A DNA stretch of 63,436 nucleotides, counting the filler, from Basidiobolus ranarum (lineage: Eukaryota): the NCBI GenBank assembly GCA_040143965.1. It is 46 parts of 46 records of this genome, joined end to end, with 100 filler letters (N's around TTAATTAATTAA, not from the genome) between each part and the next. Parts side by side here need not be neighbours in the genome. Positions count along the whole stretch, not along the records: positions 30,451 to 31,731 come from JASJQH010012581.1; 45 more parts are not named here. One strand, 5' to 3'. Shown here piece by piece: positions 20,674 through 56,728 of this stretch. The translations under genes were made by a program, and so were the position numbers. The notes under the pieces are model-generated. The model made no database searches. It was not told the origin of the DNA and saw only the letters and a list, made by a program, of their open reading frames with translations. Position 1 is the stretch's first letter. The number at the start of each line of letters is the position of its first letter.

Positions 20674-21200
20674 NNNNNNNNNNNNNNNNNNNNNNNNNNN
20701 NNNNNNNNNNNNNNNNNTTAATTAATTAANNNNNNNNNNNNNNNNNNNNNNNNNNNNNNNNNNNNNNNNNNNNATTCTATTACTCAAAAAAACCCGTTAT
20801 GAGTATATGCAACTTCTTCGATAAAAGTCTCTACTTATAGCCAATATACATTCATGCGCATGTAATGGGTAAATTAGGTGACGTTAATCTCAGGTCCACC
20901 TTAGCATAGTACGCGCCTCACATTGCGGGATTCACGATGGTCTCTTTGGATTGACAGTCACTCAATATGATTCGATGCATTTCACATAAATTAATGTGGA
21001 GTAATGACTGCCAATCACTTCATTCGCTTCTTTTACTCAGTAGAAATGATTACTTTTATTTACAGAAATATGATTAAGAACGAAGCATGATATTAATAAC
21101 TAAATAAAAGGATGTTATCTGTTCTCGACAACAACGTTCTAATAATCAACGATGATATGCTGCGAGATTGGTTGATACGAATGTTCGCTACGTATAAAAT

Positions 21201-22041
21201 CTATTGGTTGACCAAATGCTTTTGAATGATTTCCCAAATCATTCGTCGCCGAATGTACTTCATATGCTTTTGATTGAAATCAAACGGTTCATTACGGCTG
21301 ATATACTCGGCAAACATACATGTGAAGACTCCACAGTCAAACCCATTCTGTTGGCTGGGGATGTTCTTCGGAGCATAGTCTATCCAATCCGACAGATCAA
21401 ATGGTTGTCCTAGTTTATCCAAGGATTCTTCTTCAAGATAGTGGCGAAGAAGCTAATGTACAAACACCGATGAGTACTCTATTGATAAATCCCCCGTACT
21501 ATTCTGAAAATACCTGGAAGCATTGTGGATTATTCCCATGCATTGAGTCATAATACTCTATTCTCTTCTGCACAAAGTTGATGATTGCACAAACCCAGTG
21601 CATTCCAAGGTGAACAGGAATGATAATGTAATCTTTCTTGAAAATATTGAACTGTTATGTAGATCTGATTAGTCATTGATGATTAGAGATACAAAAGCAT
21701 ACTCATATATATGTCTATTACCTTACGGCTCCAACGACGGATCTGTTGATATCCTTTGTCACGAAGTGTAGAGTAGAAGAAAGTGTTGAACACATGTATC
21801 TCGGGGTACGACGATTGAGATTGTTTGGCCCTTTCCATAATCAAGTTTCCATAGAAATTCATGATCTTATAATGGTGGAAATAAGAAAGATTAGTACAGA
21901 TTGGGGGGAGTAGGCTAATAAAAGGATTACTTCATCATTTAGCCATTTTCCATCTTTTAGGGTTTGGATATCAGATTTGCTCAAGGTAACATTAAAGCCT
22001 TCAACAATATCTTCAGATCCAGGTCCAAGTTCCCATTCAAT
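21201..22041 (-). CDS. ULP1: Ulp1/SENP SUMO protease (peptidase C48), 5' partial; exons 22041-21931, 21865-21722, 21651-21514, 21452-21201
   Basis: Three GT-AG introns (60-70 nt) restore WLNDE|IMNFY...FNTFFY...IPVHLGMHW...YYDSM...QQNGFDCGVF, giving the His-Asp-Cys triad. Confidence 0.93.
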
Positions 22042-22156
22042 CTAAAACATCGCAAGNNNNNNNNNNNNNNNNNNNNNNNNNNNNNNNNNNNNNNNNNNNN
22101 TTAATTAATTAANNNNNNNNNNNNNNNNNNNNNNNNNNNNNNNNNNNNNNNNNNNN

Positions 22157-30450: not shown

Positions 30451-31731
30451 GGGGAAATTTACACTCGGGGTGAACAACTTAAAGTTAAAAATCAGACCAT
30501 CAAAGAGTGTATTAACAGGAACATAGTTCTTGCTCGAATTAAGCGCACGAATGTTACCTGGAATAAATATAGTGGTGCAAACGTTTTAACTCCCGAAAGA
30601 GGTATGTATAACCAATGTTGCGTTTTAGATTTCCAATCTTTATATCCTTCTATCTTAGTTGCGCATAACATTTGTCCTTCTGTCTATGTTAATAGTAACT
30701 TGGCTACTACAAACGTTTATACTATAGATATGGGCACTTCTAAACATAAGTTTCTCCAATCGCCTATTGGCATTCTTTCTGGTCTCGTCAAAAATTTAAT
30801 GGACAAGCGTAAAGAGGTTAAACTCAGGATGAAAAATTTGGATGAGAAAGATATTTATACAAAAATTATTTTGGATCGTAGGCAGAACGCTCTTAAGATT
30901 TGTGCCAATAGTGTTTATGGCATTATGGGATTTGAAAAAAATAATTATTTTGGGCATCTGGGATGCGCAGAATCTATTACTAAGATGGGTAGAACTTATT
31001 TAGATCAAATCGTAAATTATATATCTAATAATTATCCTGCCAGAGTTATTTACGGGGATACAGATTCTTGTATGGTTATTCCCACAACAGTTATCTCCAC
31101 ACCAGATCATATTCAAATGTGTCATAAAATATGTGAAGATGTTACACGCATGCTTCCTTCACCGATGGCTCTTAACTTTGATGAACATTACGATAAAATT
31201 ATTCTGATGTCTAAAAAGAGGTATATTATGTATAAAGACCGAACAATCAAATACAAAGGTGTTATGAATGCTCGACGAGGATATTGCCAATTTGCAAAAA
31301 ATCTTTACAGCAATACTGTCAGTGATATGATGAATGATGTTCCCAAAGACAAGATTATTTCCAATGTTAATAAACTTCTTACGGATCTTTTGAGGAATAA
31401 CGTTCCTGCTGAACTTTTAAGTATGACTAAGTCTGTTAAGAATTTGGATGAGTATAAAGTCGAACCTCCTCAAGTTCTTATGGCTAAAAGGTTAATTGCC
31501 AATGGTATAGAAGTAATTCCTGGTACCAGATTGGAATATGTTTTTACGACGAATGGTGAGAAGCAGGGTGAGCGAATGTATATGCCTGAAGAATTGGCAA
31601 GAATGGATGACTTAGAAGTGGATCCACTTTATTACATGGAGCATCAGATTATGTCACAGATAGATGATCTTTTGGGAATATTAGGTGAGGAAAATTATGT
31701 TAAACAGATAGTTAAATCTATGAGAAAGGCT
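30451..31731 (+). CDS. polB: Family B DNA polymerase, catalytic domain, large-dsDNA-virus-like (both ends partial)
   Basis: Whole contig is one 427-codon frame: TRGEQLKV, YSGANVL.P..GMY, DFQSLYPSI, RQNALKICANSVYG, YGDTDS, KKRY, KG, YYMEHQI. No introns. Confidence 0.95.
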
Positions 31732-55178: not shown

Positions 55179-56728
55179 NNNNNNNNNNNNNNNNNNNNNN
55201 NNNNNNNNNNNNNNNNNNNNNNTTAATTAATTAANNNNNNNNNNNNNNNNNNNNNNNNNNNNNNNNNNNNNNNNNNNNAATTGAGCGCACATTTTTCTAT
55301 CGCCTATGCTGCAGAAACTCAGGAGTGTTCTTTCACAGCTGATATTCAAAACCTGCTCTGTCGGTAATACAACTACAAAAAGCACACCATTATCTTCCTT
55401 GATGCGCAATCCGATGCCCCAAATGATATTGGGACGTTGGTTAGCGACAATGGCTACTACCTTATCTCCGACTTTACTACTATCTAATCCCAATAATTGA
55501 CCATCTGAGTAATTGATGAACCAGCAATTCGTAACTACTTCAAGTTCATATATAGTGTAACTTCAATCCAGGAGAGCTCACCAAACTTAAACCTATACAC
55601 AATTAGTATTACTGATGTGCTTGAATGAACAATGATATCCAAAACATTGTGGTTGTTAAGCTCACAATACTGACAAAGTATAGAACATTCCTGTATGCTC
55701 CGGAAAACATCCCATGGCAAATCTATAGGTTGCTACGTTTTGGTGAAAATTGCAATGTATGCACATTTGCTATGGCCAGTCATGTGAAGTACTAAAGATT
55801 CCTCAACTATTGCGTTTGACACAGTGACCAGTTGATTAGATGAGACTTGTGATCAGAGTATACCGCTAAGTGATAGTGTGGGCTAAACAGATACCACAAA
55901 AGGTATTGCAAGCGGATTTAATCGTCATCTTACCTTATAATCGCTGTTAGTTCGATTCAGCAAATGTTAATTGTATAAATTGACTTAATTTGAGCCATCA
56001 TATCCTAGGAAAATGCCTTTCAAATTCGTCAAGGGATCTGGTTTCACTATTAATAATGTAAGATTACATTTGAGCTTGGAGTAAGCTTTGATCTCCGTTA
56101 TATATATATCGCTAGTTTGTTTGAGAGATATGCAATAGTTGTGCTATACTCACTTGTCGAATCCATTCTTGGCTAGAGTCAATCCTATCCAGTTTCATGG
56201 TTAAAGATAGCTGTAGGAATGTTACAATCTATTCATAGACCTAAAACAGTGTTCGACTGTTTTGGCAAATGATGGCTTTTCATTTAAATTGAATCTACTT
56301 ATGAAGTTTGAAATACCTGTTTGATAGCCTAGACATATGGAAGAAAAAAACATCTGATTAATGCACACAGTATCACCTGGGCGATATCCGACAAGCCCAA
56401 TGGCTCTAGTTATCAAAATATGTTGATCGTCGATTGCGAATATTGCCTTGAAACTAGTATTTTCGTATTCTGGTGAGAAAAAATACCCACATAGTGTCAC
56501 AGAATAGATGTATCTGCTAGTCATAGGAGATACTTACTCAAAAGGGTATATGATCNNNNNNNNNNNNNNNNNNNNNNNNNNNNNNNNNNNNNNNNNNNNT
56601 TAATTAATTAANNNNNNNNNNNNNNNNNNNNNNNNNNNNNNNNNNNNNNNNNNNNTAACCACATATTGATAAGAATAAATATTTCCCAACCAAAAGTGCC
56701 TTATCATGGATTTTGAATGGTTGTACAG

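Follow-up and report, generated by a model that had tools for sequence, protein, structure and literature searches.

The closest described relatives of the sequence studied here are the fundsalphaviruses, which Gong, Zhang and Han defined after screening 1006 fungal genomes with family B DNA polymerase (PolB) (Virus Evol 6:veaa008, 2020; PMC7017919). In their phylogeny, the fundsalphaviruses adjoin Pithovirus (Pithovirus sibericum), and sequences from moss that resemble nucleocytoplasmic large DNA viruses (NCLDV) fall inside the fundsalphavirus clade. The hosts are 14 fungi, including Basidiobolus meristosporus, B. heterosporus, Bifiguratus adelaidae and two Mortierella, and the viral genes were found on long fungal contigs, some of them with stop codons. 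The genes neighboring PolB include D5, a D6/D11-like SNF2 helicase, an S-adenosylmethionine (SAM) methyltransferase, RPB2, RPB5 and an RPB1 that is split into N- and C-terminal genes (PMC7017919). Here, we describe a PolB fragment that occupies one entire contig (positions 30451 to 31731, + strand; JASJQH010012581.1) in a 63,436-nucleotide stretch of DNA, hereafter the window, from the Basidiobolus ranarum assembly GCA_040143965.1. With high confidence, we regard this contig as part of a fundsalphavirus-type NCLDV PolB gene rather than of a cellular polymerase gene. We further consider it probable that the fragment belongs to a Nucleocytoviricota-like element of the fundsalphavirus lineage, most likely integrated, that is present in Basidiobolus as a young endogenous copy.

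Other giant viruses have been associated with fungi. Mycodnaviridae/Mycodnavirales (PMC13533422, PMC13524828) are also fungus-associated Nucleocytoviricota, found both as active infections and as endogenous copies; they have a capsid gene and occur mainly in zoosporic fungi. PMC13533422 also describes the endogenous fungal elements of other authors as distinct and distant from Mycodnaviridae, and counts at least five fungus-associated PolB clades. The "fundsbetavirus" of Rhizophagus irregularis is likewise known through a giant-virus PolB in an early-diverging fungus. It lies in a 1.5-Mb region with a low load of transposable elements and a GC content unlike that of the host, which its authors read as a recent insertion (PMC10640383). 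That region belongs to an Asfarviridae-related lineage and is integrated in a chromosome-level assembly, whereas the B. ranarum sequence is only a 1.3-kb fragment. These later studies (PMC10640383, PMC13533422 and the giant-virus catalogue PMC13524828) agree with the picture drawn by Gong et al.

The window is not a continuous locus but a series of 46 contigs, all roughly 1.28 kb long, with N runs and TTAATTAATTAA spacers between them. The PolB contig is 1,281 nt long, and frame 1 of its + strand is a run of 427 codons (P0001) with no in-frame stop, encoding the C-terminal palm, fingers and thumb part of a PolB. In 2000 mononucleotide shuffles of the contig, this frame contained a mean of 33.5 stops and never fewer than 16, and the remaining five frames of the actual sequence contain 12 to 53 stops each. 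The frame runs off the contig at both its 5′ and 3′ ends. When aligned to a 768-amino-acid relative (P0002), P0001 matches residues 341 to 766; the contig therefore spans no more than the C-terminal ~55% of the gene. P0002 ends two residues past the end of the alignment, and the contig stops short of its own stop codon. About 340 N-terminal residues, including the 3′-5′ exonuclease domain and its motifs, as well as the start and stop codons, lie outside the contig; in full-length relatives, the N-terminal/exonuclease domain (PF03104) is present.

An initial annotation of this DNA had described a single 427-codon frame over the entire contig, which the stop counts bear out. It had also called the polymerase intact, with all PolB motifs. 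Motifs A, B and C of the polymerase domain are indeed kept, but because the exonuclease half is off the contig, an intact polymerase cannot be claimed. The strings YKGVMNARRG and YYMEHQIMSQ and the motifs DFQSLYPS, KICANSVYG and YGDTDS were located in the translation; its first motif, RGQQIKV, actually reads RGEQLKV. The absence of introns, which it had pointed out, does not set the contig apart, as two host-gene contigs are also single open frames from end to end (428 and 426 amino acids). The gene model that was deposited for the contig (P0242; 304 amino acids, window positions 30730 to 31620) starts at internal Met94, so that motif A is lost, and departs from the frame after residue 390, covering 297 of the 427 codons.

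The assignment of P0001 to PolB is strong. The Pfam profile DNA_pol_B (PF00136) matches residues 3 to 408 with an E value of 3.1e-79 and 267 bits (cut-off, 23), spanning profile positions 6 to 450 of 453. To evaluate individual residues, we scored motif invariance in an alignment of 30 clade sequences composed of the nearest relatives. Motif A (DFQSLYPS, residues 60 to 67; window positions 30628 to 30651, + strand), which contains the first catalytic aspartate, is invariant from D60 to S67 in all 30 and aligns with archaeal DFRSLYPS. Motif B (KICANSVYG, residues 149 to 157; 30895 to 30921, + strand), the deoxynucleoside triphosphate (dNTP)-binding helix of the fingers, aligns with archaeal KILANSVYG, and its columns K149, C151, A152, N153, S154, Y156 and G157 are invariant. 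The same is true of motif C (YGDTDS, residues 201 to 206; 31051 to 31068, + strand), which carries the metal-binding aspartates, throughout Y201 to S206. Finally, the KKRY motif that contacts primer and template (residues 255 to 258; 31213 to 31224, + strand) aligns with archaeal KKKY, and K255, K256, R257 and Y258 do not vary.

Among solved structures, the closest to P0001 is the archaeal PolB of Thermococcus (E value of 1.5e-51, chain residues 382 to 749, the palm-thumb region), followed by Pol delta (3e-40, human), Pol alpha (1e-35) and Pol zeta (2e-33). Archaeal PolB3 (Thermococcus/Pyrococcus) and eukaryotic Pol delta thus share their fold and catalytic motifs with the query; their sequence identity to it is low, however, and the query stands apart from archaeal PolBs in the tree described below. 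The compact architecture of the query's clade, about 800 amino acids, is closer to archaeal PolB than to the 1100-amino-acid, zinc-finger-tailed Pol delta. Inteins (PF14890) near motif C are common among PolBs of this clade (e.g., P0028, P0031, P0032 and P0049); relatives that bear them cover about 48% of the query per segment, and in the PolB of metagenomic locus L112 (L112:8558-12055) the match to the query is interrupted at residues ~196 to 214. P0001 has no intein.

Protein searches recovered a large family of relatives. Among longer proteins, 1398 matched at E values of at most 0.001, and the best 120 of these are PolBs of roughly 750 to 1200 amino acids with 41 to 56% identity to the query, the longer ones bearing inteins. 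Metagenomes and read-archive assemblies supplied most of these 120, to which Mortierella sp. GBA30 contributed one and a EukProt record two. The EukProt matches may correspond to the moss sequences that fall inside the clade of Gong et al. Proteins of similar length gave 82 matches, including those of Bifiguratus adelaidae (48%), Podila clonocystis (42%), Clydaea vesicula (44%), Spizellomyces sp. (48%) and Rhizopus arrhizus (39%), whereas named Pol zeta reached only 25 to 29%. The Mortierella sp. PolB is 46% identical to the query. The clade to which the query belongs consists of PolBs of about 700 to 860 amino acids that are 42 to 56% identical to it, and its nearest member is P0002, at 523 bits; P0002 and a second close relative, P0003, come from read-archive assemblies. 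No relative above 56% identity was found among the best 120 of the 1398 longer proteins or among the 82 of similar length.

Twelve loci in JGI/ENA metagenome contigs (L102 to L113) encode PolBs with 43 to 49% identity to the query, and the next matches fall to 32% or less. A single-sequence scan of IMG/VR found no relative; an alignment-based scan of the same database confirmed 566 of 599 candidates, and none of the best 80, which were kept, is close (at most 32% on the best segment). A lead from the ESM Atlas pointed to two nearest clusters that are mostly viral, with Nucleocytoviricota as the commonest phylum. In GTDB prokaryote genomes, 21 of 37 candidates were confirmed, mostly in DPANN archaea, with 24 to 30% identity for full-length matches and 34% for one short segment. 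An archaeal contaminant was rejected as the source of the contig on the basis of the low identity of these full-length matches.

To place the query phylogenetically, we built an alignment of 71 rows cut to the query span: the query, 8 proteins from eukaryote assemblies, 36 intein-free metagenomic clade members selected from the search matches, 11 IMG/VR PolBs, 9 archaeal PolBs and 6 cellular zeta-type PolBs. A maximum likelihood (ML) tree was inferred with IQ-TREE from 69 of these rows (the very long IMG/VR rows L012 and L014 were excluded) and 528 columns under LG+G4, with no mixture model. In this tree, the query lies inside a 45-row clade together with Bifiguratus, Mortierella sp., Podila, Clydaea, Spizellomyces and Rhizopus, supported at 100/100 (ultrafast bootstrap [UFBoot]/SH-like approximate likelihood ratio test [SH-aLRT]). 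Within it, the query groups with P0002 and P0003 at 100/99, and this trio adjoins the Bifiguratus/Podila/Mortierella group at 93/85. Cellular zeta-type rows (100/100) and archaeal rows (100/99) form separate branches, and the 45-row clade is linked to a set of IMG/VR giant-virus contigs at 86/95. A quick tree of all 71 rows is concordant with the ML tree.

These data bear directly on whether the contig could stem from the fungus itself, as a divergent paralogue of its cellular Pol delta or zeta. Such a paralogue would share the PolB motifs, which are common to delta-type enzymes, and JGI has automatically named relatives of the query "DNA polymerase delta subunit 1". However, the query is only 24 to 27% identical to the six cellular zeta-type rows, compared with 42 to 56% to a clade found in viral contexts. 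In the tree, it lies outside the cellular zeta-type branch (100/100). Pol delta, which has no named representative among the rows, was judged by scores instead of by the tree, and the yeast and human Pol delta structures score 139 to 142 bits, against 523 for P0002. Also, precomputed Pfam lists show the C-terminal CysA/CysB zinc-finger domain (PF14260) for the Pol zeta matches and not for clade relatives, and in relatives of the query, viral replication and transcription genes adjoin PolB. We therefore regard a cellular paralogue as exceedingly improbable. The clade support, identities and scores uphold the initial proposal of a large-DNA-virus (Nucleocytoviricota-type) PolB, as opposed to Pol delta or zeta of a fungus.

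The gene neighborhood of the clade was read in the 12 metagenomic loci, where we scanned 104 flanking open reading frames (ORFs) with Pfam in flanks of up to 10 kb per side; the window contig itself contains the PolB fragment and nothing else. The flanks are dense and intronless, with both strands coding and a GC content of 0.25 to 0.46, on contigs of up to 92.7 kb. D5_N plus DUF5906 primase-helicases occur in L103, L104, L107 and L112, with one more besides. Transcription genes are frequent, with Rpb1 fragments in L103, L104, L107, L108, L112 and more, Rpb2 in L104 and L111 with one more besides, and five Rpb5. A fusion of mRNA capping enzyme and N7-methyltransferase is found in L107 and L112, DEAD/SNF2-type helicases are found in L106, L107, L111 and L112, and UDG, XPG and DNA ligase are also among the flanking ORFs; together, these genes make up a conserved replication and transcription module. 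Neither the NCLDV capsid (PF04451) nor the A32 ATPase (PF04665) was detected among the 104 ORFs, a weak negative given flanks of at most 10 kb per side. Proteins with a HET domain (PF06985) are encoded a few kilobases from PolB at two loci (L106:6218-7825, + strand, E value of 3.4e-16; L108:13751-14629, − strand, E value of 1.8e-15). The HET (heterokaryon incompatibility) domain is typically fungal, which hints that the uncultured relatives in this clade also have fungal hosts.

Comparison with the fundsalphaviruses shows agreement on several levels. The host genus Basidiobolus is shared, and Bifiguratus and Mortierella members fall within the query's PolB clade, a match that was made via proteins of the same species or genera and not through the accessions of Gong et al. 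themselves. The neighbor module of the query's metagenomic relatives equals the published set (D5, SNF2/D6-D11, methyltransferase/capping, RPB2, RPB5 and split RPB1). The B. ranarum sequence differs in that its host is outside the published list of 14, in that nothing found exceeds 56% identity to it, and in that the part of the copy seen in the window has no stop or frameshift. Because both the clade and the gene module match the fundsalphaviruses of Gong et al. (2020), the initial suggestion that the contig could mark an undescribed DNA mycovirus lineage is not supported; the contig instead extends a lineage that has already been described, in a genus that already counts among its published hosts. 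We found no report of this element in B. ranarum in the literature searched, a point on which the supplements of Gong et al. might bear. With respect to Pithovirus and other Pimascovirales, the query's clade joins IMG/VR giant-virus contigs at 86/95, but its identity to those PolBs is only 28 to 32%. Similarly, no IMG/VR PolB exceeds 32% identity to the query in the comparison relevant to Mycodnaviridae, a family recognized by PolB and other markers that group with lineage IM_02/MY_02 and by a capsid gene; no sequence in this set is labeled as belonging to it.

We then considered the genomic background in which the contig occurs. The PolB contig has 29 CpGs, with an observed/expected (o/e) ratio of 0.77 and a GC content of 0.345. 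CpG content in the window is bimodal: 33 of the 46 contigs have CpG o/e ratios of at most 0.26 (0 to 11 CpGs), and those among them with recognizable coding content are copia/integrase-like, whereas 13 contigs lie at 0.38 to 0.85. The CpG-retaining contigs that we scanned are ordinary host genes, encoding a GH20 hexosaminidase, nonribosomal peptide synthetase condensation and PP-binding domains, an aspartyl protease, a subtilase, an aldo-keto reductase and Ulp1. This pattern suggests that methylation-driven CpG decay is confined to repeats in this Basidiobolus genome. The initial count of about 30 CpGs was therefore accurate, as was the observation that neighboring transposon contigs keep few CpGs, but CpG retention is not special to the PolB contig, since 12 other contigs fall at 0.38 to 0.85. 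The origin of the assembly from a fungus is corroborated by the GH20 contig, which is 88% identical to B. meristosporus, and the protein deposited for the PolB contig is labeled Basidiobolus ranarum. GC content at third codon positions (GC3) is 0.30 in the PolB frame and 0.33 to 0.53 in four host genes.

This background also informs the idea that the contig is contaminant DNA, contributed by a virus or an endogenous element from some organism other than Basidiobolus in the sample. In favor of this idea, the contig lacks a host flank and is short, its nearest relatives P0002 and P0003 come from read-archive assemblies, and the clade is common in metagenomes. On the other hand, the clade recurs in assemblies of early-diverging fungi, including those of two other Basidiobolus species, and the GC content of the contig lies within the range of contigs in the window (0.326 to 0.49). 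Contamination thus appears quite unlikely.

The condition of the reading frame provides insight into the history of the copy. Of all possible single substitutions in the PolB frame, 4.76% create a stop, so that the chance of the frame staying open under neutral divergence, indels ignored, is 0.30 at 2% divergence, 0.047 at 5% and 0.002 at 10%. Of the 121 columns conserved in at least 90% of the other 29 sequences, 11 carry a non-consensus residue in the query, in line with intact relatives on similarly isolated branches (P0002, 9/122; P0003, 10/122; P0062, 13/128). Combined with the CpG content and GC3, these values indicate that the copy has existed only briefly, if at all, as a silenced insert undergoing neutral decay. 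Taken together, the open frame, normal CpG content and normal conservation favor a young or unmethylated copy. We infer recency as well as integration, for which the two Basidiobolus hosts reported by Gong et al. provide the analogy, and on balance we lean toward a copy that is integrated and young.

An element that has not integrated at all would leave many of the same traces. We therefore considered whether the contig derives from an extant virus or an episomal virus-like element that replicates or lies latent in the Basidiobolus culture used for sequencing. The open frame and normal CpG content, conservation on par with intact relatives, and a GC3 below that of four host genes are in line with this idea, and the metagenomic relatives lie in dense, intronless, unbroken gene arrays on contigs of up to 92.7 kb, as in live genomes and not fossils. 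However, a replicating virus usually yields long, high-coverage contigs, and here the contig is 1.28 kb, as for host genes. Single-copy host genes in the window are also split into 1.28-kb contigs with frames open at both ends; the size of the PolB contig therefore fits host-level coverage and not an abundant virus, although this is a weak hint. To our knowledge, dsDNA viruses have yet to be isolated from non-zoosporic fungi, and the fundsalphavirus lineage, of which there is no isolated virus, is known only from genome fossils. In addition, fundsalphavirus genes have been found on long fungal contigs, some stop-bearing (PMC7017919), and Myers et al. report that, among non-zoosporic fungi, Dimargaris alone has an NCLDV capsid gene (PMC13533422). 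We consider an extant, unintegrated element unlikely, though clearly less so than contamination. The initial annotation had offered a young or unmethylated endogenous element alongside a virus co-sequenced with the fungus; both remain live options, and neither was singled out by the sequence features.

A different explanation for the open frame is that a viral PolB was domesticated by the host and has been kept open by selection for a host function. The open frame, host-gene-like CpG content and retention of conserved residues would be consistent with such a history. Against it, neither the B. meristosporus proteome nor any other source yielded an orthologue above 56% identity in the protein searches, and the same facts are explained more simply by recency. 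Furthermore, we know of no precedent for the co-option of a replicative viral PolB without its partners. Domestication therefore seems very unlikely.

Several observations weigh against our preferred reading of a young, integrated fundsalphavirus-lineage copy. The 1,281-bp contig includes no host flank, junction or adjoining transposon. Its open frame, CpG content and conservation fit a young insertion and a latent or replicating element alike, and the open frame, normal CpG content and low GC3 are equally expected of a virus co-sequenced with the fungus. When all ORFs of at least 70 amino acids from the 12 metagenomic loci were compared by tblastn with the 46 window contigs, only the PolB contig was matched; the queries in this search for further viral genes were the neighbor ORFs of those loci. 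No B. meristosporus protein appeared in either protein search, and any resemblance of this copy to the Basidiobolus elements of Gong et al. is presumptive. Likewise, the link to Pithovirus and Pimascovirales is that of PMC7017919, with our own tree giving just the 86/95 branch to IMG/VR giant-virus contigs.

Based on these observations, we propose how the encoded enzyme and its present copy could be understood. The PolB would copy a viral double-stranded DNA genome, with the catalytic metals presumably held by D60 of motif A and by D203 and D205 of motif C. K149, N153 and Y156 of motif B would position the incoming dNTP, and the KKRY motif and thumb would hold the primer-template. The enzyme is predicted to work with the D5 primase-helicase, viral RNA polymerase and capping enzyme that are encoded adjacent to it in relatives. 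In B. ranarum, the copy is most likely integrated in the fungal genome, where it would have been neither decayed nor methylated as host transposons are, and it is probably without function for the host.

Two other contigs in the window stood out in the CpG analysis. The contig at 56656 to 57932 (CpG o/e, 0.38) contains overlapping + strand frames of 243 and 204 amino acids, which had no Pfam match and no match to the viral neighbor genes of the 12 loci. The contig with the highest CpG o/e ratio (0.85), at 20774 to 22056, carries an Ulp1/C48 peptidase exon (PF02902, E value of 1.1e-16) in an ORF at 21204 to 21452 on the − strand; this exon may belong to a host gene or be part of a mobile element.

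These results led us to speculate about how the fundsalphavirus lineage is maintained. The PolB could be part of an extant fundsalphavirus-type double-stranded DNA element that is still replicating or latent in Basidiobolus, a non-zoosporic, walled fungus, a scenario we regard as doubtful. Because no canonical NCLDV capsid or A32 gene was found in the 104 flanking ORFs of its metagenomic relatives and Myers et al. report none from non-zoosporic fungi except Dimargaris (PMC13533422), the lineage could survive with no classical capsid, or with an unconventional one like that of Pithovirus. On its own, our finding adds one host species to the published list and was largely expected. Even so, a polymerase fragment that is uninterrupted and looks unmethylated, from a Basidiobolus that can be cultured, offers a modest lead. 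It suggests that the association between virus and fungus is recent or ongoing in Basidiobolus, and its size makes it a convenient PCR target for distinguishing an integrated from an episomal element and for detecting expression.

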